Shown here piece after piece: positions 3 to 63,964 of a stretch of DNA of 64,000 nucleotides (within the stretch, counting starts at the first letter, position 1; each line of letters starts with the position of its first letter). The notes beneath the pieces were generated by a model. The model did not search any database. It saw only the letters and a list, made by a program, of their open reading frames with translations, and had not been told where the DNA came from. The position numbers and the translations under genes are program-made. Origin of the DNA: Alteromonadaceae bacterium (GTDB taxonomy: Bacteria > Pseudomonadota > Gammaproteobacteria > Enterobacterales > Alteromonadaceae); the NCBI GenBank assembly GCA_965279005.1, contig CBDIHK010000024.1:166562-230561 (forward strand). The letters are read 5' to 3'.

Positions 3-584
3 TTGCCTTTGGATCTGAGCCAACACCGCAGCCGCATATTCTATTTATCTGGTGGCTATAAATATGCCCAAGGTGGTGAAGGTGTATGTTTTATGCATTG
101 TCCGAAAAGTATCCTACTAAGGCCGCTTTACACTGGCTGGTATGCAGAGTTTGGTGAGTTACAGAAGTTCAAGTCGCGCAAAGTGGACTACAGCAAAACG
201 GGTTTCCATTACGCTGGTTCTACCATGGACTACAGTGGCATTTACCGCCAGCTTGCTGTTTTTGAGCAGTGGCATGAGTTGGGGATCAGCATTGCTGATA
301 TCCATGGGCACGTACAAACCATGCAGGCCAGCTTTTTAGGGCACCTGGACAGCATTGGCCATGCAATATTGAACCGTGACAAATTGGTCGCAAATGACTT
401 ATCTGTGCATGGTCACTTCCTCAGTTTCGAATTACCCGGTGGTCAAGCTGGGCAGTTGCATGAATTTTTAAAGCAACACAAAATCATGACTGATCACCGT
501 GGCAACAGGTTGCGTTTTGGTTTTGCGCCGTACCATGAAGCTGGCGACATAGACTTGTCCTGCCTAGGACAATTCAATGTTTGA
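3..584 (+). CDS. C-terminal part of a kynureninase-like / class V aminotransferase-fold PLP enzyme (5' end lies outside the window)
   Basis: The ORF is open from the window edge. SGGYKYAQGGEG resembles the PLP-lysine motif of kynureninases. The tail DHRGNRLRFGFAPY resembles the kynureninase C-terminus. Confidence 0.45.
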   Translation: MPLDLSQHRSRIFYLSGGYKYAQGGEGVCFMHCPKSILLRPLYTGWYAEFGELQKFKSRKVDYSKTGFHYAGSTMDYSGIYRQLAVFEQWHELGISIADIHGHVQTMQASFLGHLDSIGHAILNRDKLVANDLSVHGHFLSFELPGGQAGQLHEFLKQHKIMTDHRGNRLRFGFAPYHEAGDIDLSCLGQFNV

Positions 585-6825: not shown

Positions 6826-8979
6826 TTATTGCGCAAAAAAGCTTTTGCCAGACTTGGCCATTTCGCGAAGGCCGTCGGTTACTTGGTAAATCGCACCAAG
6901 ATCTGCGTACTTGTCAGCCATTTCAACAAAATTGGCAATACCAACGGTCTCGATGTAGCGGAAAATGCCGCCGCGGAATGGAGGGAAACCAAGGCCATAC
7001 AACAATGCCATGTCAGCTTCTGCTGCAGATGCGACAATGCCTTCTTCCAAACAACGCACGGCTTCGTTGGCCATAGGTACCATCAAGCGCGCGATGATCT
7101 CTTCTGCGTCGAAATCTGTTTTGTCCTGGCAATGTGGCTGCATAAGGGCATAGGCATCTTCAGCTGGTGACTTGCTTGGTCGGCCTTTTTTGTCGACACC
7201 GTGGTCATAGAAGCCTTTTTGGTTCTTCTGGCCATAGCGCTGCGCTTGGTACATCAGCGTGACTGGGTCATTTTCCAGTTTCTGCATACGCTCTGGGAAG
7301 CCCGACGCCATAACATCAGAAGCGTGGTCAGCAGTATCAATACCGACGACGTCAAGCAAATAGGCAGGACCCATAGGCCAACCAAACTGCTTCTCCATCA
7401 CTTTATCTACGGCAACAAAATCAGCACCATCGAGGATCAACTTGCTGAAGCCGGCAAAATAAGGGAATAGCACCCGGTTCACCAAGAATCCAGGGCAGTC
7501 GTTGACTACGATGGGGGTTTTACCCATCTTCAAGCTCATGGCAACAACATTGGCGATGGTTTCATCAGAGGTTTTTTCGCCACGGATAATTTCCACCAAG
7601 GGCATTTTGTGCACAGGGTTGAAAAAGTGCATGCCGCAGAATTTATCAGGGCGGGCAAGGTTTTCTGCCAAGCTATTGATTGAAATCGTGGAAGTGTTGG
7701 AACAAATCACGGTTTCTTCACCCACCGCTTGTTCGGTTTCCTTGAGTACAATGCCTTTCACTTTTGGATTTTCAACAACGGCTTCAATCACAATTTCAGC
7801 GTCTTTTATGGCTGAGTACTCTAAGCTAGGCACGATATTGTTGAGGGTATTGGCCATCTTCTTGGCATCGACTTTACCGCGCTTCATACCTTTGCCAAGG
7901 ATTTTACTCGCTTCATCCAAGCCAAGTTGCAATGCCGGCTGGGCGATGTCTTTCATGACTGTCTTCGTGCCTTTAAGGGCGGCCTGGTATGCGATACCGC
8001 CACCCATGATACCCGCACCCAATACAGCGGCTTCAGAGAAGCTCTTAGTGGCGGCTTTGGCTTGCTTCTTGCCTTTGCCCTTTACTACTTGATCCGCTAA
8101 GAATATACCGACCTGTGCAGTGGCTGCGTCAGATTTGGCTAAAGTCACAAAGCCTTGGTTTTCTAGCTTCAAAGCCTCTTCCCGGCCACAAGCCGCTGCT
8201 TTTTCCAAGGTTTTTACCACCATATGCGGCGCCGGGTAGTGCTTGCCTGCTTGGGCTGCTACCATGCCTTTTGCTGTTGCAAAGCTCATCATGGCTTCGT
8301 TTGGCGTGAGCTTTAATGGTGACTTTTTCGCTTCGCGGCGGGCTTTCCAGTCAATATCGCCGTCAGCGGCAGCGTTGAGCATCTTAAGCGCGACTGCCTG
8401 CAGCTGTTCTGGTGTCGTAGCGGCATCAATGGCGCCCTCTGCCAAGGCTTTGTCCGCCTTGCGGTCGCGGCCAGTGGTCATCCACTCCATCGCGTTGTCG
8501 GCACCGATGATACGGGGAAGGCGCACTGTACCACCAAACCCAGGCATCAAACCGAGCTTAACTTCTGGTAGGCCAATCGCCGCAGTACTGTCTGCAACCC
8601 TTAAGTCACAAGCGAGGGTCATCTCGCAACCGCCGCCTAGGGCAAAACCATTGATCGCTGCAATGGTTGGGAAAGGTAAATCTTCAAAGCGGTCGAATAC
8701 TTTTGAGGTTTTTTCGACCCAGGATAATAGCTCTGATTCTGGTGCTGCAAACAAGCCGGTAAATTCGGTGATATCAGCACCTACGATAAAGGTTGATTTA
8801 TTAGAGCGGACGAGTGCGCCCCTGATATCCGTTTGCGCTTCTAATGCTGCGCATAATTCATCGAGTTCGGTAACGGTTTGCTGGTCGAACTTATTAACCG
8901 AGCCTTGGGCATCAAATACGATATCGACAATATCATTTTCCAGGCGGTCGGCTTGTAAGCATTGGCCTTTAAATAACAT
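6826..8979 (-). CDS. fadB: fatty acid oxidation complex alpha subunit (enoyl-CoA hydratase / 3-hydroxyacyl-CoA dehydrogenase)
   Basis: I chose the start at MLFKGQ (ATG 8979, preceded by GGAG) by similarity to the FadB N-terminus MLYKGD. Contains the GADITEF and [10 protein letters not shown] motifs. The track ORF extends to 9033. Confidence 0.95.
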
Positions 8980-50809: not shown

Positions 50810-52567
50810 ATGGACAGCAGCGCGCCGAATAAAACAATCCTGCGCAGGTTTTCATTTTGGCAACCTTGGTTGCTTTTGCTGATCCTGGTATTTATCGCCT
50901 TGCAAATATGGTTTTTGACGGCCCTGACCTACTCGGTGGCGAGTGCCGGTATGCAGCTGGACATTGACGCTATGGAACTGGCCGGGCGCAGCATTGCCAG
51001 CGCCGGGTTTAGCCTCTCCGTTATCATTGGCATCAGCCGCTTTAGGCGTTTGTATTCAAGGCCGCGCTGGCAACGCGGCTTGATAAAAATAGCGGTCGGT
51101 GTGGTTAGCACGGTAGTTGTTTATTTTGGGTTGAAGCTGGCGTACCAAGGCATCCAGGAGCGGGTCAGGTTTGATCTTATCCACTGCAGTGTGGCCGGTG
51201 GCCTGGCTAGCCAATCCTTGCACGGATGGCAGGTAGATGCGTCGGGCAGTATGTCTGTGGACAAAGCACTGCTGCAACTATTGCTGCCCTTAGCTGTGTG
51301 TTTAGATGATGGCCTGTATGAAAAAGTGCTCGCATCTGAATCTACCGAAAGGGATTTAAAAAACCTATTTGCAAGCCAAGGCAAATTAGAGTTAATACAG
51401 CGGCGCATGGTCAACCTATACCGGCAACTACTGCACAGGTTGCCGCAGTTATTGCCATGGTATAGCCAATATTTGGCTGCGGAAAAAGGCAATCAAAGGC
51501 AGTTAGTGCTAGCTGACTTTGAGCAGCAACTGCAAATTAGGGCTATGTTGGATAGCCAGCTCAATCGATCGCAAATTGAGAGGATTGTGCAGTTGTTCGA
51601 AAGTGGCGCCGCCCTGCACCAAACGAGTCCTGGCCTGAACCAGGCCTACAGTTTAATGCTAGCAGCTACCCAATTGTTATACGATGGCTTGTCAAAGAGG
51701 CAACCCTATTTAGTGCAACCGGTGGCGGCAAACCAAATCTATACTGTCGCCAATGACATGGCCGATGCCATGGCTAGGTTGTTTTTAGCACAGCAACAGC
51801 CTGCCCAAAATCAACTATTAGAAGCCATGCGCCCAAGCTTTGGCCTCGTTTTGCTGCCCGTTTTTGCGGTGGCATTAAGTACTTTCGTAATCAGCCTCGC
51901 CATTGCCAATTATGTCCGTAGCAGGTTGTTTCGCTATGCGCACCACAAAGGCGGCCAGGTTAATCCCATTTTTAACGCGGTTCTGTCGGTATTGGTGATC
52001 ATTCCCTTGGTATGGTGGTTGCTGTTTAATTTGCTCAACGAAACGCCGCTTGAGCGGCAACTATTTCCGCAGCACGTGCAAAGTCCTGGCGTCATAGCCC
52101 TAAAGGTAGCGCTGCGGCCACTGCTGTACCTTTATGAACCCTCAAAAAGTGCCACCAGTTCTTTTGTTGGCTATGATGCTTTGCGGGTATTCGCTAAACC
52201 AATTGAACTGGCTGAACAACAACCCACTTCTGCCGTTAGCTTGGCAGGCTTGTGGTTTGGTGATGTGTGTTTGTCTAGCAATAACTGTGAACCTATAGGT
52301 TTGGTTGTCTCGCCAGGCGCCAGTTATGCCTATTTTCCGAACCAAGGCTTTTGCCAGGTGCCAATAGTGCCATTGCCTGGCCTTTCTGCACAAAGCGATA
52401 CCGTGGTATTTGCAGGCCAAGCGGGGGCGGGGGATTGTAGTTTGGTTGCGAGGGTATCGATTCCTGCAATTAAACCAGCTGATATGGCCACTGGCCAGAC
52501 GTTAGCTATTGGCTTTATAAGAAGCGGAAAATCAACCAGTGCGCTAATGGCCTATTACCCGTTATAG
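50810..52567 (+). CDS. hypothetical polytopic membrane protein
   Basis: 585 aa with about five predicted TM segments. I recognise no motif. Confidence 0.55.
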   Translation: MDSSAPNKTILRRFSFWQPWLLLLILVFIALQIWFLTALTYSVASAGMQLDIDAMELAGRSIASAGFSLSVIIGISRFRRLYSRPRWQRGLIKIAVGVVSTVVVYFGLKLAYQGIQERVRFDLIHCSVAGGLASQSLHGWQVDASGSMSVDKALLQLLLPLAVCLDDGLYEKVLASESTERDLKNLFASQGKLELIQRRMVNLYRQLLHRLPQLLPWYSQYLAAEKGNQRQLVLADFEQQLQIRAMLDSQLNRSQIERIVQLFESGAALHQTSPGLNQAYSLMLAATQLLYDGLSKRQPYLVQPVAANQIYTVANDMADAMARLFLAQQQPAQNQLLEAMRPSFGLVLLPVFAVALSTFVISLAIANYVRSRLFRYAHHKGGQVNPIFNAVLSVLVIIPLVWWLLFNLLNETPLERQLFPQHVQSPGVIALKVALRPLLYLYEPSKSATSSFVGYDALRVFAKPIELAEQQPTSAVSLAGLWFGDVCLSSNNCEPIGLVVSPGASYAYFPNQGFCQVPIVPLPGLSAQSDTVVFAGQAGAGDCSLVARVSIPAIKPADMATGQTLAIGFIRSGKSTSALMAYYPL

Positions 52568-55113: not shown

Positions 55114-56493
55114 TTAGCCGATAAAGCCAATCGGTGCCTGGCCACTGGCCGGGTCGTAGAACCGGGTAATGTTTGGCAAAATGTCTGGCAACACGCTTGG
55201 CGCCACGCCAAACCAAAGGGCTAGTTCACCAAAGTATTGGTCAAGCGAGGTAGTTGGCATCAACACCCCCCTACCGGTATCCAATGGATTGCCAAGCTGG
55301 AGGCTAGGGTAGGTGCCATAAGCGGAACCGCCCCGTACTGCCCCACCCATGATCATGGCGTTGCCGCCCCAGCCATGGTCTGAACCTCGGCCATTGGAAG
55401 ACAGGGTACGGGCGAAGTCTGAGGTAGTGAAGGTGGTCACTTGGTTGGCCATACCCATTTCATTAATGGCAGCTTGGAACGAACTTAAACCTGCATCTAA
55501 AACTGTGAGCAACTGGTTCAGGGACGCAGTGAGTTCATCGTGGTGATCCCATCCGCCCAAAGTGACAAAAAACGTTTGCCGCTGCATCCCCAGGGTTTGG
55601 TTGGCTGCGATGGTTTTGGCCACCATTTGCATTTGCGACGAGAATTCATCGTTACCAAATTGGGTCGTGAATGGAGATGTTCCCGCCACTGCTGCGGCAA
55701 ATTCAGAGTTGGCCGCAATAGAGTCGTTGAATAGTTTCTGGTATGTGCGCCGGAACAAGTTGTTATATTCCTGCCCATAGATTTGGTTAATGGCTGCGCT
55801 CCTGGTGCTATTGCCCAACTCATCTTCAATGCCACTAATGGTGGCCGTCGGGGCATCGGCGCTACCGACGCTATAATAATCAGTCAGCCTACCTGCTTGG
55901 AACTCATTCGCGCCTGAAGTCGAGATGCTCATGGAAATACGCTGGCTACTGTTTTGTGAGGCTAGGATATCCGCCATGCGGCCGCCCCAGCCGGTGGCGC
56001 TGCGCACATCTGGAATAGCCGTTTGCCATTGGCTGATTTGGTCTGAGTGGGACTGCAAGCCCAACGGCAATTTTGCGGTACCATTGGCCAATGCCTGGGT
56101 ACTGGTAGGTTCAACCAAAGTACCGACGTTGCTTAAAAAGGCCAGGTTGCCACTGTTGTAGAGGGATTGCAGCCCAGTCATAGCTGGATGCAGGCCCAAG
56201 GTGCGCCCGTTGTTCTGGCTATTATTGATCGCAAGCAATTGCGCTTTGGCCAAGGCCAAGTCGGTGCGGGTATTACGGTATTGCTGGTAATAAGTATCGT
56301 CGCTTGGCACCAGCATATTGAACGAGTCGGCACCACCTGCCAATAACACGCATACCAGGGCTTTGTAGTCATTGCTTTGGGCGCTGGCCTTGGCCATTGC
56401 CCCAAGCTGGGCTGCGCCAGCCAAAGTCATGGCTGAAAGGGCATGGCCCGAATGGCGTAAGAATGTCCGTCTTGAAAGTTTATGTTGTTTCAT
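55114..56493 (-). CDS. DUF1501-family protein (sulfatase/alkaline-phosphatase-like fold) with a Tat signal
   Basis: 459 aa. Twin-arginine motif SRRTFLR, plus LLAGGADSFN and GGWDHH, which are typical of DUF1501. Confidence 0.9.
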   Translation of the reverse strand: MKQHKLSRRTFLRHSGHALSAMTLAGAAQLGAMAKASAQSNDYKALVCVLLAGGADSFNMLVPSDDTYYQQYRNTRTDLALAKAQLLAINNSQNNGRTLGLHPAMTGLQSLYNSGNLAFLSNVGTLVEPTSTQALANGTAKLPLGLQSHSDQISQWQTAIPDVRSATGWGGRMADILASQNSSQRISMSISTSGANEFQAGRLTDYYSVGSADAPTATISGIEDELGNSTRSAAINQIYGQEYNNLFRRTYQKLFNDSIAANSEFAAAVAGTSPFTTQFGNDEFSSQMQMVAKTIAANQTLGMQRQTFFVTLGGWDHHDELTASLNQLLTVLDAGLSSFQAAINEMGMANQVTTFTTSDFARTLSSNGRGSDHGWGGNAMIMGGAVRGGSAYGTYPSLQLGNPLDTGRGVLMPTTSLDQYFGELALWFGVAPSVLPDILPNITRFYDPASGQAPIGFIG

Positions 56494-56555: not shown

Positions 56556-59195
56556 TTAAATTGCCACTGCGTAATCAGGGGAAATGGCAAGGAGATAAAC
56601 CGCGGCCGCGACGCGCTCCTGGTGGTCTTCAATGGCTTCGATTACCGTTTTGATGGCTTCCCGCGTGCCGCTGGTTAGGGTGCCGTAGGTCATAACCGTA
56701 TCTAGCCGGTCAAGCAGGGCATCGGCGTCGGCTGCTAAGGCAACTTCTTCTGAAAAATCCAATTTTTCTGCGGGCAGTGCCCCTGAATTATCTAATACCT
56801 GTCCAGTTTCCAACGAGTAGTAAATAACATTCTTGATATCCATAATGGTGGAGGCATTGGTGATTTGGAACTCAGGCGCTACCAAGCCAGCGTCTTTCAG
56901 TTCACCATTGGGTGCATAACTCGGTAAAAAGAAATTAAACACGCTAGGTGCTGACAACACGTATTGCCTGATGGTGGCTGCCATTTCATAGCCATCATCG
57001 CTATAGGTGTTGTCGCTGGATGTGGCGTTGAAGGTCCGCATTAAATGGGCAACCCGCAAGAAGGGTTCCCGCAACCGGCCATCTGAGGATGAGGCCAGGT
57101 TAGGGGCTTGGCGCGCTTCTGGATCCATCAGGATGGCTCGGACAACCGCTTTCATGTCGCCCCGGGCTGAACCTGTTTCGCCATTGAAGGCGGCAGTTAC
57201 ACGTGCAATATAGGCTGGGCTGGGGTTTGACTTGACCAACCGCTGGATCAGCTGTTTGCCGATAAATGGGCCAACGTTAGGGTGGTTGAACAGGTTGTCG
57301 ATGGCGGCATTGATATCTTGCATACCGGTTTGTCCCGCTGGCACAACTTGTCCGCGCAACAAGGTCTTGCTACTGGTGTCGTGGTGTTGCTCATACATTT
57401 TCATGGGCAGCAAGAAAATGTTGGTATCAGAGTCAGATTCCAATTCATCAACATCCCGCTGGCCAAAAGCGTTGGGATCATCGCTGTTCCAGCTTAAGCC
57501 GGTGAATACCTTGGCGAATTCACGTATTTCATCTTGGCCATAGGTTGGGATAGGGTCGCCAGAAGCATCCAATTTGCGCGAACCATCAGGATTCAATTCG
57601 TACAGCCCTATGCTAAACAGCTGCATGACTTCTCGGGCGTAGTTTTCGTCTGGGAAGGTGCCTTTGCTAGGGTCTGCTTTTGCGTTGTGGATATGGCTTA
57701 GGTAAATCCCCATGGTGTGGCTAAGGGTTACGTCTTTCAACAAATCCCTAAAATTGCCCAAGCTATTTTTTATCAAAAGGTCGTAGTAACCCGCCATAGC
57801 AAAGTTATTAATGCCAATTTCCTCAACATTGCTTGAGACAACGAATATTTCACTCAACGCCATGGCAACCCGCTGCCTAACCACATCTGGCGACGTCATC
57901 ACCGTAGTCCACCATCCATCTACCCAAAAGCGTTCAGGATCACCTAGGCGTTCAAATATTACTTCAAATTCTTCGTCGCTCAGGTCTTCATTGGCCAAAT
58001 AGAATTTCTCGACTTCAGCCATTAGGAACTCGGCAAAGGGCAAGGTATAACTCGGCGGCAACTCAAATTGTTGCTCCAACCACATATCAGGACCGGTGGC
58101 AGCAACTTGGGTAATAGTGGCGTAGTTGGCGCCTAGCGTTGCTTGTGACAAGAAGCGCGAGGCGTCATTGGCGGCGTCTTTGTCAACCGTCATTACAGTC
58201 CTGTCAGCCGCTGGATTTGGATTTACAAAACCTGAAGGCTGCTCAACTGTGTTTTCTTCGCAGTCTTCTTCCTGGCCTTCTTCACACTCATCAGAGAAGT
58301 CTTCGCAGTCTTCTTCCTGGCCTTCTTCGCACTCATCCATGAAGTCTTCACAGTCTTCTTCCTGGCCTTCTTCACACTCATCAGAAAAGTCTTCGCAGTC
58401 CTCTTCCTGGCCGTCTTCGCACTCATCTGTGAAGTCTTCGCAGTCTTCTTCCTGGCCGTCTTCGCACTCATCAGAAAAGTCTTCGCAGTCTTCTTCCTGG
58501 CCTTCTTCACATTCATCAGAGAAGTCTTCGCAGTCTTCTTCCTGGCCTTCTTCACACTCATCAGAGAAGTCTTCGCAGTCTTCTTCCTGGCCTTCTTCGC
58601 ACTCATCTGTGAAGTCTTCGCAGTCTTCTTCCTGGCCTTCTTCACACTCTTCAGAGAAGTCTTCGCAGTCTTCTTCGTTACCTTCTTCGCACTCTTCAGT
58701 GAAATCTTCGCAGTCTTCTTCTTGGCCTTCTTCGCACTCTTCAGTGAAATCTTCGCAGTCTTCTTCGTTACCTTCTTCACACTCATCAGAGAAGTCTTCA
58801 CAGTCTTCTTCTTGGCCGTCTTCGCACTCCTCTGTGAAGTCTTCGCAGTCTTCTTCGTCACATTCCTCGGGTGGGCCGATTATCTCTATACACCACTCTG
58901 GGTCTTCGATGCAGATCCGCAAAAGTTCACGACAGAGCTCGCGGTCTTCGCAGATTTCTTGGATGAATTCACAGGCTTCGTCGCCATCGCAATCTATGTC
59001 CTGGCCAACGATTTGTCGCCTTAGTTGCTGGCTTGCAGATAATGCTGAAAAAGCGGGTTGGTTGATAAGTTTTGCTGTGTTCTCTTTGGCAAAAATGTCA
59101 AATGTGGTAAATGCCAATGTGAGGTAAAGCAGCGAAAACAACATGCTGTGCCAGGCAAACCTTCGGGTTTTGCCGGAAGAAGTATTGTATTTCAT
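56556..59195 (-). CDS. DUF1800-family protein with an N-terminal Cys-rich hyper-acidic tandem-repeat extension
   Basis: 879 aa. A Sec signal peptide, then 13 copies of CEDF(T/S)(D/E)ECE(E/D)G(Q/N)EED, then a DUF1800 body (PDENYAREVMQLFSIGL). Confidence 0.88.
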   Translation of the reverse strand: MKYNTSSGKTRRFAWHSMLFSLLYLTLAFTTFDIFAKENTAKLINQPAFSALSASQQLRRQIVGQDIDCDGDEACEFIQEICEDRELCRELLRICIEDPEWCIEIIGPPEECDEEDCEDFTEECEDGQEEDCEDFSDECEEGNEEDCEDFTEECEEGQEEDCEDFTEECEEGNEEDCEDFSEECEEGQEEDCEDFTDECEEGQEEDCEDFSDECEEGQEEDCEDFSDECEEGQEEDCEDFSDECEDGQEEDCEDFTDECEDGQEEDCEDFSDECEEGQEEDCEDFMDECEEGQEEDCEDFSDECEEGQEEDCEENTVEQPSGFVNPNPAADRTVMTVDKDAANDASRFLSQATLGANYATITQVAATGPDMWLEQQFELPPSYTLPFAEFLMAEVEKFYLANEDLSDEEFEVIFERLGDPERFWVDGWWTTVMTSPDVVRQRVAMALSEIFVVSSNVEEIGINNFAMAGYYDLLIKNSLGNFRDLLKDVTLSHTMGIYLSHIHNAKADPSKGTFPDENYAREVMQLFSIGLYELNPDGSRKLDASGDPIPTYGQDEIREFAKVFTGLSWNSDDPNAFGQRDVDELESDSDTNIFLLPMKMYEQHHDTSSKTLLRGQVVPAGQTGMQDINAAIDNLFNHPNVGPFIGKQLIQRLVKSNPSPAYIARVTAAFNGETGSARGDMKAVVRAILMDPEARQAPNLASSSDGRLREPFLRVAHLMRTFNATSSDNTYSDDGYEMAATIRQYVLSAPSVFNFFLPSYAPNGELKDAGLVAPEFQITNASTIMDIKNVIYYSLETGQVLDNSGALPAEKLDFSEEVALAADADALLDRLDTVMTYGTLTSGTREAIKTVIEAIEDHQERVAAAVYLLAISPDYAVAI
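58263..58847 (-). repeat. 13 tandem 45-bp in-frame repeats inside the DUF1800 gene
   Basis: The period-45 unit gcagtcttcttcctggccttcttc(a/g)cactcatc(a/t)g(a/t)gaagtcttc is visible directly in the sequence. Coordinates were derived from the translation. Confidence 0.9.
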
Positions 59196-59275: not shown

Positions 59276-59305
59276 AAACGATTGGTTCTTGCGAACTATT
59301 CCACA
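59276..59305 (-). promoter_or_regulatory. ECF-type promoter candidate upstream of the DUF1800-DUF1501 genes
   Basis: The minus strand reads GTGGAATAGTTCGCAAGAACCAATCGTTT. This is 20/29 identical, with the same spacing, to the motif upstream of the S8 protease gene. Confidence 0.45.
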
Positions 59306-59381
59306 ATCTAAAAAATTGCTGCTGAGCAAAGCGTGTTTTTTTCTGCTAGTCTGCAAGCAAAGCCACTAGTTTGTTTTGAGC

Positions 59382-60290
59382 ATGAAATTAAAGTGTTTGC
59401 TGTTTTCTGTGTTAGTTGTCCTGGCCAACCACAACGCCTATAGCAAAGAAGTGCATAGTTTTAACGGCGCCATCGAACTCGCCACAGAAAATGATTCCAC
59501 GGTTGTGGTGGATGAAATTGACAATGTTGCGCGGGACAGCAGTAGTAGCTGGAAATACAAACTCAATGCCCGCTACCGCTACCGCCCTTATGAGCACACC
59601 AAGGCGTCCTTGAGTTTTACCTTCTCTGATAAAAACTACAAGCAAGACGATAGTTTCAACAGTGAATTACGCATGTTTTCAGCTAGTATCAGCAGGGAGT
59701 TTGAGCATTTCACTTTAGGGCTAAGGGCACAGGATATCGATTCTAAACTGGGCGGCCAGGATTTTTTAACGATAGAACAAGTATCTCCTTACCTCACTTT
59801 CTTTTTGAGTAAAAAGTGGTTTGTTAACTTGAGTTACCGCCATGCTGATAAGGAAATTGTCAGTAATTCGTCCCGTTCCGGCGACAGTGATTTGTTTAAT
59901 GCCGACTTGTACTTTTTCCAACAAGGGGTACGCCAGTTCTGGATAGCCTCAGTGCGTCACAAGTCTGAACAAGCCCAAGACCCCATTTTTAGCTATGATC
60001 TGCAACAATTTAGGTTAGTGTATTCCCAGCGCTTTGATTGGTGGCAATGGCAGCATAAGCTGCGGTTATCGTGGCGTTTCCAGGAGCGGGACTACGATTC
60101 AGCTATCAATCCTGATTTAAATGACTTTCGCCGCGACATAAGGCGCCAGTGGCGTTTCGAATGGGAAGCTGAGTTCCATGAAGATTGGTTTTTGATTTTG
60201 GAGTTAAAACGCAATGACAATAATTCCAATTTTACGACATCAGATTACAACCAAAATGTGACCGGCTTAGCGCTTAAGTACGAGTTTTAG
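59382..60290 (+). CDS. outer-membrane beta-barrel protein, unknown family
   Basis: Signal peptide MKLKCLLFSVLVVLANHNAYS, alternating amphipathic strands, and a C-terminal ...LALKYEF (terminal Phe). The track ORF starts at TTG 59376. Confidence 0.7.
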   Translation: MKLKCLLFSVLVVLANHNAYSKEVHSFNGAIELATENDSTVVVDEIDNVARDSSSSWKYKLNARYRYRPYEHTKASLSFTFSDKNYKQDDSFNSELRMFSASISREFEHFTLGLRAQDIDSKLGGQDFLTIEQVSPYLTFFLSKKWFVNLSYRHADKEIVSNSSRSGDSDLFNADLYFFQQGVRQFWIASVRHKSEQAQDPIFSYDLQQFRLVYSQRFDWWQWQHKLRLSWRFQERDYDSAINPDLNDFRRDIRRQWRFEWEAEFHEDWFLILELKRNDNNSNFTTSDYNQNVTGLALKYEF

Positions 60291-63200
60291 CGAGCAGTTC
60301 TGTCACTTTTTGCTTTAATTTCACTTGCACTTTTTGAGTGCCCAATACAGGCAATAACCCATGGCCAAACTGTGGGTCAAAGCCGCGCTTACCCAAGTCT
60401 AAACAATTGTTAAACAAGTCCATCCAAGGTGCAGGGCCCGTTGTTTGGTAGTGTCCTTGGGCATTGGCTGCCAAATAAGCTGCAACAAATGGGGCGGCCA
60501 TGGAAGTACCGGTCTGGGTGCCATAGCTTTGGTTTGGTTGTGCAGTGATCACATCAACCCCATATGCCGCTAGATCGATATGTTGGCCCTGTACAGCGCG
60601 TTTATACAAATTCAAGTCGCTATCCACTGCGGTAACCGCAATGGCGCAATCGTAAGCCGCAGGAAACAGCGGACTCGATAAAGGGCCGGCATTACCTGCT
60701 GCGGCCACCAAGGTAATGCCTTTTTCACACAGCTTGTTTACAGAAAATTTAAGCAGGCGGTTAGCAGGACCGGCGAGGCTCATATTGACCACCTTGACGT
60801 CCTGCTGCAATAACCAATCTAAGCCCTTGATAATGTTTAAGGTTGTGGCAATGCTACCGCCTTGTTTATCGTTAAAAAACACCGAAGCACTATAGAGTTG
60901 GGCATTAGGTAGTAGCCCGCGGTAATCGTTACTATCGGCTACCAGGATTGACGCAACTGCAGTACCGTGTTGGTAGTCTTTTTTATGTTGTCCTTGGATA
61001 AAATGCCGTTGTTTGATCTGTGCAGCTTGCAAAGATTGGTGTTCGGTATCGACAGCGGTATCCACCATACCTAATTTTATACCGTTGCCATTTAGTTGCA
61101 TGACTTGGCCTGGAATGATGCCGCCTTTATCTGCTTTATTTGATTGGGCATAGCGATATATATGGTTGAAGTCAGCGATGCTATTGTCCCGGTTTAACCT
61201 AGTTAAAACTGTTTGGTAGTCCCGTTGCAAGTCAAATGAGGCTGGTGCGACTACTTTTGCCACAATGGCATCTAGTGCTTCCAGGCTCTCTTGCTCTTTG
61301 AATTGATAACCTTCTTTTTCTAATTCGGCTTTAGTCTCTGCATCTGCCATGATCAACCATTCGTTTGTCCATATCTCGTTGCCGTCAAAGTCTTCAAACA
61401 ACTGATCGGTTTCATCAATCACTGCTTGTTCTGGCTGTTCCTGTTCTTGCCAGAAGCGGCTTAATGCTGCTTCCGGTGATGGCTGGTCATTGAATCCGTC
61501 CTTGCGCATTTCGTTAGTCCCATCGAAATCGAAGTCGAAAGCATCATGGCCGTTTGTACCGCCTTCTTCAGTATCTAAATCTTCATCATCTTCGTTCCCG
61601 AACCCTACTTCATGTTCGGAGCCTTCATGGTCATCTTCGTTTTGGTGGTCGAGTTCTTCGTCTTCAAAATTGTCCTCTTCTGCAGCGAATTCATCCTCGC
61701 CTTCGAATTCGCCTTCATCTTCGAATTCGCCCTCGTCTTCGAACTCACCTTCATCTTCGAACTCCCCCTCGTCTTTGAATTCATCCCCCTCTTCGAATTC
61801 ATCCCCCTCTTCGAATTCATCCCCCTCTTCGAATTCATCCCCCTCTTCGAATTCTTCCTCGTCTTCGAATTCATCCTCATGTTCGAATTCATGCTCAGCT
61901 TCGAATTCGTCTTCATCTTCGAATTCATGCTCACCTTCGAATTCGTCTTCTAGTTCTTCGTCGAATATTTCATCTTCTTCAAATTCTTCATCAAAACCAT
62001 CTTCAATTTCATTTTCTAGATCGTCTTCCGTTTCATCTTCCCAATCGTTTTCCAGCTCATCCTCGGTGTCTTCTTCTATCTCCTCTTCGACTTCGTCCTC
62101 GGTGTCTGCTTCGATTTCCTCTTCGACTTCATCCTCGGTGTCTTCTTCGATCTCGTCTTCGACTTCATCCTCGGTGTCTTCTTCTATCTCGTCTTCGACT
62201 TCATCCTCAGTGTCTTCTTCGATTTCCTCTTCGACTTCGTCCTCGGTGTCTTCTTCGATTTCCTCTTCGACCTCATCCTCGGTGTCTTCTTCGATTTCCT
62301 CTTCGACTTCGTCCTCGGTGTCTTCTTCGATTTCCTCTTCGACCTCATCCTCGGTGTCTTCTTCGATTTCCTCTTCGACCTCGTCCTCGGTGTCTTCTTC
62401 TATCTCGTCTTCGACTTCGTCCTCGGTGTCTTCTTCGATTTCGTCTTCGACCTCATCCTCGGTGTCTTCTTCGATTTCGTCTTCGACCTCATCCTCGGTG
62501 TCTTCTTCGATTTCCTCTTCGACTTCGTCCTCGGTGTCTTCTTCGATTTCGTCTTCGACTTCATCCTCGGTGTCTTCTTCGATTTCGTCTTCGACCTCAT
62601 CCTCGGTGTCTTCTTCGATTTCCTCTTCGACTTCGTCCTCGGTGTCTTCTTCGATTTCCTCTTCGACTTCATCCTCGGTGTCTTCTTCTATCTCGTCTTC
62701 GACTTCGTCCTCGGTGTCTTCTTCGATTTCCTCTTCGACTTCATCCTCGGTGTCTTCTTCGATTTCGTCTTCGACCTCATCCTCGGTGTCTTCTTCGATT
62801 TCCTCTTCGACTTCATCCTCGGTGTCTTCTTCGATTTCCTCTTCGAATTCATCCTCGGTGTCTTCTTCGATCTCGTCTTCGACTTCGTCCTCGGTGTCTT
62901 CTTCGATTTCCTCTTCGACCTCGTCCTCGGTGTCTTCTTCGATTTCGTCTTCGACTTCATCCTCGGTATCTTCTTCGATCTCGTCTTCGACCTCGTCTTC
63001 GGTGTCTTCTTCGATCTCGTCTTCGACTTCATCCTCGGTGTCTTCTTCGATTTCGTCTTCGACCTCGTCCTCGGTGTCTTCTTCGATGTCATCCTCTATA
63101 TCATCTTCCCAATCATCTTCAGGATCAGACATAAAAAAACTATTGTTGGAATGGTTGTTGGGTAATAGGGCAAAATCCGATCTGATACGTTGGGCCGTTG

Positions 63201-63360: not shown

Positions 63361-63389
63361 TTAACGTTTAAGTATAGTGAACTATTTCA
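63361..63389 (-). promoter_or_regulatory. ECF-type promoter candidate upstream of the S8 peptidase gene
   Basis: The minus strand reads GTGAAATAGTTCACTATACTTAAACGTTA (GAAAT-N17-CGTTA). Confidence 0.45.
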
Positions 63390-63412: not shown

Positions 63413-63441
63413 GCTGGAATAAGTTTCAGGCTATAACCGTT
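63413..63441 (+). promoter_or_regulatory. ECF-type (autoregulatory) promoter candidate upstream of the ECF sigma gene
   Basis: CTGGAATAAGTTTCAGGCTATAACCGTTA (GGAAT-N17-CGTTA). It ends 20 nt before the ATG. Confidence 0.4.
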
Positions 63442-63460: not shown

Positions 63461-63964
63461 ATGCAGATATCGCAAAATGAACTGAAAAAAATACTGGTTA
63501 AGGAAATGCCCCGTCTACGCAGGTTTGCCTATTCATTGACGGGAAGTAAAGCGGATGCGGACGATTTGGTGCAGAACCTGATCCTGAAAATGCTCAATAA
63601 AGGGTTGCCAGATTCGGTACAACCATTGCCCTGGTTGTTCCGTGTTTGCAAAAACCTCTGGTTAGATGAAATTAGAGCACGAGATGTGAGGGTCAGGGCG
63701 GTGCAAGAAAAGAAAATCCCACAAGCAGAACAAGAATCGAAACAAGATTTGCACGAAATCGCCTATTCAGCTGAGCAGGTGATGCAGGTGATGCAATCTT
63801 TACCAGAGGAGCAACGTGTTATTATCAGCCTGGTGCTGGTGGAGGGCTTTAGCTACAGCGAAGCGGCTGATGTGCTGGAGATCCCCAAAGGTACCGTTAT
63901 GAGTCGATTGTCACGGGCGCGGCATAAGTTGCTCGACTTATTAGAGCAAGGTAAACAGAGTTAA
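63461..63964 (+). CDS. ECF-family RNA polymerase sigma-70 factor
   Basis: 167 aa. Region 2 (LRRFAYSLTGSKADADDLVQN, PWLFRVCKNLWLDEIR) and region 4 (GFSYSEAADVLEIPKGTVMSRLSRARHKL). Confidence 0.9.
   Translation: MQISQNELKKILVKEMPRLRRFAYSLTGSKADADDLVQNLILKMLNKGLPDSVQPLPWLFRVCKNLWLDEIRARDVRVRAVQEKKIPQAEQESKQDLHEIAYSAEQVMQVMQSLPEEQRVIISLVLVEGFSYSEAADVLEIPKGTVMSRLSRARHKLLDLLEQGKQS

Follow-up and report, generated by a model that had tools for sequence, protein, structure and literature searches.

In one clade of marine gammaproteobacteria, a DUF1800 protein carries an N-terminal array of short, acidic, Cys-paired repeats. The window analysed here is a stretch of 64,000 nucleotides from an Alteromonadaceae bacterium (assembly GCA_965279005.1, contig CBDIHK010000024.1, positions 166,562 to 230,561), and the protein in question, of 879 amino acids (aa), is encoded from an ATG start by the open reading frame (ORF) 56556..59195 on its minus strand. 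What might such an array be for? We propose, with a probability of about 0.45, that it is a disulfide-looped, polyanionic and largely disordered linker with non-specific cation binding. As far as sequence comparison tells, it sits where many other DUF1800 proteins (gammaproteobacterial, about 565 aa) carry a lipid anchor and a Gly/Pro-rich tether. Unit sequence and unit length drift within the clade, while the acidity, the two Cys per unit and the even Cys total are held constant.

Anatomy and probable export of the repeat protein

The protein consists, in this order, of an export signal, a lead-in, thirteen repeat units, a closing Cys, an NPNP linker and the DUF1800 body (Table 1). Tandem Repeats Finder reported a 45-bp unit in 13.4 copies at 58255..58856, with 89% matches and no indels; the copy number of such a near-identical array of about 600 bp hinges on the quality of the assembly. 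In the register of the protein this amounts to thirteen complete units of 15 aa (aa 117-311), followed by a partial fourteenth that starts with C312. The unit consensus is CEDF[ST/M][DE]ECE[ED]G[QN]EED (for example CEDFSDECEEGQEED), with two Cys and nine acidic residues in each unit. Both Cys, the Phe and the Gly are invariant in all thirteen. Amino acid changes occur at positions 5 (T/S/M), 6 (D/E), 10 (E/D) and 12 (Q/N) only and are conservative, and the ratio of the Cys codons TGC and TGT is 11:2 at unit position 1 and 7:6 at position 8. The repeat region has a net charge of -117, with 26 Cys in 195 aa and no basic residue. The whole segment between signal and body is 310 aa long, with a net charge of -137; every one of the 34 Cys falls within it, and the body of 533 aa has none. 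A reading made earlier from the sequence alone (the sequence-only reading) had described thirteen near-identical 45-bp repeats, each with two Cys and nine acidic residues, within about 300 extra residues opened by a Cys-rich lead-in, and this description is borne out. The lead-in stretch aa 66-106 (DIDCDGDEACEFIQEICEDRELCRELLRICIEDPEWCIEII) has six Cys, and a seventh, C112, is found between it and the first unit. The Cys of the lead-in are invariant in six orthologues (alignment A3), and so are N5 and N7 of the SGFVNPNP linker motif (alignment A2).

It is the body that makes the protein a member of DUF1800: it matches PF08811 with 289 bits against a cut-off of 26.1 (E 9.6e-86), over aa 347-876, which takes in positions 1-418 of the 419 in the profile. 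The N-terminal module falls into no family described so far. Searches of the protein with NCBIfam and Pfam gave DUF1800 or nothing and left the module unmatched, and the N-terminal region had no match in Pfam at E up to 10. A sequence search of this region against the PDB gave compositional matches only, to designed helical repeat proteins. A query with just the N-terminal 280 aa gave 20 candidates of which none was scored, with the handling of low complexity as the probable cause. The searchable literature holds no description of the module and no account of acidic Cys repeats in the periplasm. When 1.84 billion representatives were searched with a profile of the lead-in, the matches were two N-terminal fragments of DUF1800 proteins, a Lys-rich repeat protein that is a spurious hit and a Cys-rich helical protein that matches weakly; judged from this outcome, the lead-in is not a mobile, widespread domain. 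The last of these, P0124 (199 aa), is a secreted Cys-rich helical protein in which HP[ED]xCRxF[IV]E[FY]C recurs about 8 times (E 7e-5), and it may be a distant relative of the seven-Cys lead-in domain. A reading of DIDCDGDE in the lead-in as a DxDxDG Ca-loop was rejected, the motif not being conserved in orthologues.

Is the N-terminal extension made at all? The pattern RxFAWH..LYLTLAFTTFDI[FY]AK of the signal segment is kept in P0002, P0005 and P0121, and residues 1-36 would be either a Sec signal peptide (predicted site I-F-A/K) or an uncleaved signal anchor, the latter being possible since the hydrophobic stretch is 20 residues long. A lipobox [LVI][ASTVI][GAS]C was sought in the window protein and not found, and aa 1-68 contain no Cys. 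It might be supposed that the true start lies beyond the repeats, so that the N-terminal region is untranslated, or that the array is an artefact of assembly; repeat arrays are readily misassembled, and other frames over the array are open too. We hold this to be extremely improbable. A translation start downstream of 58263 had been named beforehand as one of two outcomes that would overturn the sequence-only reading, but the first Met beyond the array, M335, lacks a signal sequence downstream of it. In every homologue with the extension, signal, acidic array, NPNP linker and body run in a single frame, and independent assemblies, including the complete genome of Planctobacterium marinum, have the same architecture. 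Each family member that was examined has some N-terminal feature for export, be it a signal peptide, a lipobox or another. The partner protein DUF1501 is itself predicted to be exported, by a twin-arginine signal, which places the pair in the envelope. As the array is in frame with the conserved signal and the body, and as homologues keep this architecture, the extension is almost certainly translated and exported. The alternative-frame ORFs, a Ser-rich one of 333 aa (58126..59127, plus strand) and a Lys-rich one of 212 aa (58223..58861, minus strand), are by-products of the repeat that could mislead gene callers.

Probable cysteine pairing and distribution in the clade

The spread of the array was followed through the homologues of the protein. 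Among the best 38, an acidic (over 35% Asp/Glu), Cys-containing extension stands at the same position in at least 15 clusters, and the clusters with acidic Cys repeats belong, where named, to Alteromonadaceae, Planctobacterium or Psychrosphaera. The closest relatives come from an Alteromonadaceae metagenome-assembled genome (MAG; P0002, 921 aa) and from Planctobacterium marinum (P0003, 823 aa), and their bodies are 74-75% identical to that of the window protein. Units range from 13 to 16 aa and always have two Cys: besides the 15 aa of the window, there are 13 in P0002 (CDDMRECDEDDED) and P0003 (CDDFPECNENEEE), 14 in P0012 (CEPELPECDEEDEE), and 16 in P0007 (CEGRGDDEECDEDDEE) and P0009 (CEHDFDDEECDEDEDE). 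At the DNA level the window has 13.4 copies of 45 bp, locus L002 16.4 of 39 bp and L001 12.3 of 39 bp. Asp and Glu swap freely between lineages, and orthologous units contain Pro or Gly. Related lineages (P0016, P0024, P0025, P0028) have acidic extensions with just 2-4 Cys. The acidic extension is kept throughout the clade although the bodies have diverged to about 50-60% identity. Metagenome scans by the repeat DNA pattern and by protein found no match to this exact repeat. In a background of 76 loci of the broad family, drawn from many phyla and mostly from distant members, with close relatives such as Planctobacterium not among them, acidic repeats occur in two of the matches listed (a Psychrosphaera MAG and an Alteromonadaceae MAG). 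Distant gammaproteobacterial members (about 565 aa) have a lipobox (L-x-A-C-GGGG), poly-Gly and a Pro-rich tether at the same place.

By these comparisons the module is a fast-evolving feature of one marine gammaproteobacterial clade as a whole and is not peculiar to the window protein. The sequence-only reading knew of no described DUF1800 member with such a module. The module is indeed undescribed, but comparing the architectures, as that reading had proposed, brought equivalents to light in the clusters counted above. It had also proposed a comparison of copy numbers, and here a difference was found: between locus L004 (5194..7632) and P0009, both of Psychrosphaera type, the bodies are 97.7% identical and the CEHDFDDEEC units number 10 and 6, so that copy number varies between close strains, with the caveat that both proteins come from assemblies. 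Some members of the clade have a lipobox before the acidic repeats (LFAC in P0009 and L004, LFTC in P0018); in L004 and P0009, LFAC is followed by Asp, and these two are lipoprotein forms of the acidic-Cys architecture.

What is the state of the Cys? Independently of the unit sequence, neighbouring Cys stand 4-9 residues apart, a narrow range, and their spacings alternate as (5,6), (6,7), (6,8) or (7,7). Of the 22 homologues whose extension contains Cys, 21 have an even number of them in its mature part. The bodies contain 0 or 2 Cys. All six proteins with the lead-in (P0001, P0002, P0003, P0005 and P0023 among them) follow the layout 7 + 2n + 1, in which the lead-in contributes seven Cys, the array 2n and the closing position one. 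An even number of Cys is a bioinformatic hallmark of exported disulfide-bonded proteins, and the window protein has this property, with 34 Cys that all lie in the exported extension. Exported Cys in bacteria that have DsbA are normally oxidised, and DsbA has a tendency to link each Cys to the next one while the chain leaves the translocon. The acidic region of about 580 aa in a neighbouring S8 protease has, in contrast to the DUF1800 array, no Cys. Given the even counts and the common layout, pairing of the Cys appears the better choice over metal coordination, the two alternatives that the sequence-only reading had put forward. The pairing part of its "disulfide-stapled rod" is therefore favoured, but the rod is not supported, with a predicted local distance difference test score (pLDDT) below 50 and Pro or Gly in orthologous units.

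These scores come from an AlphaFold2 model of the window protein built with a 63-sequence alignment, which carries out the structure prediction that had been suggested for the repeat. The pLDDT is mostly above 90 in the body, about 85 in the lead-in, which is modelled with helices at aa 73-81, 85-97 and 99-106, and below 50 over aa 116-302. The repeats are thus modelled as disordered and may be so in the protein. Foldseek found no match in the PDB for the full model (best E 0.97), so the fold offers no functional lead for DUF1800.

The proposed mechanism is as follows. Once the protein has been exported by Sec, its Cys would become oxidised in the periplasm and form disulfides of short range, probably between consecutive Cys, with predicted pairs C69-C75, C82-C88, C95-C102 and C112-C117, and from there on the second Cys of each unit with the first Cys of the next one, up to C312. 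The array would become a string of small acidic loops (C-EEGQEED-C) with short Phe-containing spacers between them; if pairing is consecutive, the spacers are the EDF[ST][DE]E segments, which contain Pro in many orthologues. This would give a stalk that is extended, does not collapse, probably resists proteases and has a net charge of about -137. On grounds of physical chemistry, this stalk in a marine periplasm should carry many Mg2+ and Ca2+ counter-ions, and may act as a cation binder of high capacity and low specificity. It would serve as an accessory to the DUF1800-DUF1501 pair, which is apparently controlled by an extracytoplasmic function (ECF) sigma factor and has a putative outer-membrane channel in its neighbourhood: in the window the 14-stranded barrel, in sister genomes a TonB receptor coupled to FecIR.

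Could the array have grown without any selection? Under this explanation it is a runaway expansion of a low-complexity linker that does no more than join the signal sequence to the domain, and its acidity comes from a general bias among the secreted proteins of this cluster or organism. The units do change fast in number and length, the neighbouring S8 protease has still larger acidic arrays, AlphaFold2 finds no structure, and the units within each array (window, L001, L002) are near-identical in DNA, as is expected from recent duplication or concerted evolution. On the other side, two Cys per unit, a narrow spacing and even totals recur in at least 15 clusters with different units, whereas the acidic region of the S8 protease is Cys-free; Cys, Phe and Gly are invariant within the array and their codons vary synonymously; and the acidic extension has outlasted the divergence of the bodies. 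We consider neutral expansion unlikely. What selection seems to hold is the charge, the two Cys and one hydrophobic residue per unit, with exact sequence and loop length left free. The varying unit length and the free interchange of Asp and Glu suggest that charge matters and not a defined coordination geometry. Selected features with neither a fixed sequence nor a fixed loop length argue both against a fixed metal site and against pure neutrality.

Several points weigh against the linker interpretation and should be noticed. A pure spacer would need neither cysteines nor a conserved hydrophobic residue in each unit, which may point to a more specific role. No lipobox is present in the window protein; should its signal peptide be cleaved off, the array would tether nothing, and "stalk" would be a misnomer. 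The low pLDDT may stem from a shallow, poorly alignable alignment and not from true disorder. Even Cys counts follow in part from two Cys per unit and from shared ancestry, so that the observations are not independent. The disulfides and their connectivity are predicted from the pattern of the Cys. Finally, DUF1800 and DUF1501 have no assigned functions, and the purpose of the module is thus not tied to a chemistry.

Gene neighbourhood and promoter-like motif

The genes around the DUF1800 gene are listed in Table 1. The DUF1800-DUF1501 pair found here is kept in all the related loci that were examined, among them L001, L002, L003, L084, L085, L086 and L088, and DUF1501 belongs to the alkaline-phosphatase/sulfatase-like superfamily (Pfam). 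L088 has an ordinary pair of the lipoprotein type (568 aa) with an ECF sigma gene after it. Two types of neighbourhood are seen for the acidic-repeat proteins. Type A (window, L002, L084, L086) has an ECF sigma factor, an anti-sigma factor, an S8 protease with acidic repeats, DUF1800 and DUF1501, and in three of its four loci, L086 being without it, a barrel protein of about 305 aa between protease and DUF1800. In the syntenic L002 the sigma gene is followed by a DUF3379 anti-sigma gene; the same position here is past the end of the window. Type B (L001, L003, L085, L087) has a TonB-dependent receptor, then DUF1800 and DUF1501, with FecI-FecR ahead of the receptor in L001 and L085. No FecIR or TonB transducer genes were found in the window.

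Table 1. Location of the parts of the DUF1800 protein, its neighbours and candidate promoter motifs in the window, and of receptor-associated stretches in Type B loci
Feature	Position	Strand	Basis and remarks
Predicted export signal, aa 1-36 (MKYNTSSGKTRRFAWHSMLFSLLYLTLAFTTFDIFA)	59088..59195	-	Read from sequence; AlphaFold2 helix aa 12-31; conserved in P0002, P0005, P0121
Linker, aa 37-65	59001..59087	-	Short, basic, poorly conserved; pLDDT <50
Cys-rich helical lead-in, aa 66-116	58848..59000	-	7 Cys: C69, C75, C82, C88, C95, C102, C112
Repeat array, thirteen 15-aa units	58263..58847	-	Tandem Repeats Finder and protein register; pLDDT <50; no Pfam or PDB match
Partial 14th unit with closing Cys C312, then conserved SGFVNPNP linker into body	58158..58262	-	Sequence comparison
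DUF1800 body, aa 347-879	56556..58157	-	Pfam PF08811; Cys-free, mostly alpha-helical; pLDDT mostly >90
DUF1501 partner gene	55114..56493	-	62 bp downstream, same strand; Pfam PF07394, E 1e-35; twin-arginine signal SRRTFL
Small outer-membrane protein, divergent neighbour	59376..60290	+	AlphaFold2 pLDDT 82, 14 long strands
S8 subtilase, 1013 aa	60274..63315	-	Pfam; about 580 aa of D/E repeats between signal peptide and catalytic domain, Cys-free
S8 repeat array, 36 bp x 28.6 (DEVEDEIEEDTE)	62057..63087	-	
S8 repeat array, 18 bp x 14.4	61686..61944	-	
ECF sigma factor gene	63461..63964	+	Pfam and NCBIfam
ECF-type motif GGAATA-N16-CGT, about 107 nucleotides upstream of DUF1800 ATG	59278..59302	-	Motif scan
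ECF-type motif upstream of S8 gene	63364..63388	-	Motif scan; also in L002, L086
ECF-type motif upstream of ECF sigma gene	63416..63440	+	Motif scan
TonB receptor-associated stretch, L001	5594..9779		
TonB receptor-associated stretch, L085	3343..7389		
TonB receptor-associated stretch, L003	2..2215		
TonB receptor-associated stretch, L087	2..1009		

The motif GRAATA-N16-CGT has four matches in the window against 0.64 expected, and in three cases the gene that follows is DUF1800, S8 or sigma. L002 and L084 have the motif at unchanged distances, and L086 has a form of it that is one base shorter. Its place before the sigma gene suggests autoregulation. There is thus good evidence, from the motif, for a predicted ECF regulon that includes the DUF1800-DUF1501 pair. 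The fourth match (52043..52067) is on the opposite strand inside the ORF 50810..52567 (plus strand) and is probably due to chance; this ORF of 585 aa has no Pfam match at E up to 0.001. A scan for sigma-70 promoters and terminators was uninformative, and the "terminators" reported inside the array are artefacts of the repeat.

The small outer-membrane protein is conserved in L002 and L084, and a set of 5.8 billion proteins contains just three clusters of it. In Foldseek its model comes closest to CymA and OmpG (E about 1e-9), and from the model we treat it as a putative channel of unassigned specificity. An identity as Slam or a type XI secretion system (T11SS) component (SlipAM, DUF560) was rejected on a score of 20.6 bits against a cut-off of 22, on CymA and OmpG as the best folds and on the absence of a TPR domain; the T11SS cargo paper leaves such loci unmentioned. 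The 3' end of the barrel gene overlaps the convergent S8 gene by 17 bp. In L084, between the barrel gene and DUF1800, there is an additional gene (6994..7650, minus strand) for a secreted protein of 218 aa with an acidic, D/E/N-rich low-complexity centre, which the window lacks.

The S8 protease invites a further question, whether the acidic array is a removable pro-region. It might work as an intramolecular chaperone or autoinhibitor, possibly as a polyanionic mimic of the substrate, and be cut off by the co-regulated protease. In four loci (window, L002, L084 and L086) the S8 gene does belong to the ECF-motif cluster, and an N-terminal location is typical of pro-domains. Yet no S8 gene was seen in the examined flanks of L001, L003, L085 and L087 (the last a contig of only 4.3 kb), no cleavage motif was identified, and nothing ties the S8 protease to a DUF1800 substrate. 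A pro-region is highly unlikely in our view. The orthologous proteases in L002, L084 and L086 have acidic units and copy numbers of their own.

The receptors of Type B raise another possibility, that the array is a specific domain for metal capture or storage. One metal (Fe, Zn, Cu, Ca or a lanthanide) would be bound by Cys thiolates, by pre-organised carboxylate loops or by both, after entry through the outer-membrane channel or TonB receptor, and would be handed to the DUF1800-DUF1501 pair or buffered for it. In all four Type B loci the pair lies directly downstream of the receptor. FecI-FecR stands before it in two of them, and the scanned receptors (L001, L003, L085) most resemble siderophore receptors, but their scores of 126-164 bits are below the NCBIfam siderophore-receptor cut-off of 223.5. 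DUF1501 falls in a superfamily of metallo-hydrolases, and DUF1800 is mentioned in passing in the proteome of mineralising vesicles and among Ca-induced calcification genes, although these links in the literature are incidental. Selection on the Cys of every unit across lineages would suit a metal site as well, but Cys totals such as 34, 26 and 22 are multiples of 2 and not of 4, an oxidising compartment makes thiolate binding less likely, and the sister lineages P0016, P0024 and P0025 manage without most of the Cys. CxC and CxxC clusters, His, Met and a DxDxDG repeat are all absent, and the free interchange of Asp and Glu and the variable loop length speak against a fixed site. Specific metal capture is thus an unlikely explanation. 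In another version, disulfides would close the array into successive polycarboxylate loops, and these would capture one specific hard metal ion (Fe3+, Ca2+ or a lanthanide) that arrives by way of the TonB receptor or porin; this too we think quite unlikely. Were it true, it would give DUF1800-DUF1501 a role in ECF-regulated metal acquisition or mineral handling.

Significance and comparison with known systems

DUF1800-DUF1501 is a widespread bacterial envelope gene pair without a function, with only passing mentions in the searchable literature. To this pair the clade adds an accessory module that appears to be under selection, a probable ECF regulator with its promoter motif, and putative outer-membrane partners, a TonB receptor or a 14-stranded channel. 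The context of ECF regulon and channel makes the pair approachable by experiment, for example in cultured Planctobacterium marinum. If the loops bind cations in a defined way, they would be a new bacterial metal-binding repeat; otherwise the array would be a disulfide-stabilised polyanionic linker that takes the place of the lipoprotein tether. The interest of the module is limited in that it is common in its clade, of low complexity and attached to a body without known function.

How does the array compare with systems already described? In its proposed way of working it comes closest to a lipoprotein tether combined with an acidic cation binder of high capacity. The thrombospondin type-3 repeats (TSP/COMP) form a Ca2+-binding "wire" of short acidic tandem repeats with local disulfides that holds many Ca2+. 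They are the nearest structural analogy, with tandem acidic repeats and regular Cys in an oxidising compartment; however, the window array has no DxDxDGxxDxxD, its units (13-16 aa) are Glu-rich, a folded wire is not supported, and Pfam gave no TSP_3 hit at E up to 10. Calsequestrin, the acidic repeat domain of MamJ and the anionic regions of Neisseria LbpB are acidic, cation-binding or low-complexity regions. The array resembles them in its extreme Asp/Glu content, from which non-specific multivalent binding would be expected, and LbpB is likewise an exported accessory protein partnered with a TonB-dependent receptor. Unlike the array, these regions have no periodic Cys pairs; they show no sequence relationship to it and work with other partners. 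Metallothioneins and phytochelatin-like (Glu-Cys)n peptides are also Cys-rich and repetitive, and each Cys of the array is flanked by Glu or Asp. Metallothioneins are marked by CxC or CxxC, Cys at about 25-33% and a reducing compartment. The array has 26 Cys in 195 aa, about 13% against about 30% in metallothionein, with a spacing of 6-7 residues in the window (4-9 overall), and is exported to an oxidising compartment.

Two comparisons lie nearer to the protein itself. The S8 subtilase about 1 kb away shares with it the ECF-motif cluster, the layout of signal, acidic repeats and catalytic domain, and the lability of copy number, but its repeats, unlike those of DUF1800, are Cys-free. The other is with the tethers of DUF1800 lipoproteins. 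Compared with these Gly/Pro tethers, the window array is polyanionic, Cys-paired, 5-10 times longer and without a lipobox. Like them, it lies between the export or anchor signal and the body, is of low complexity and variable length, and is predicted to be disordered.

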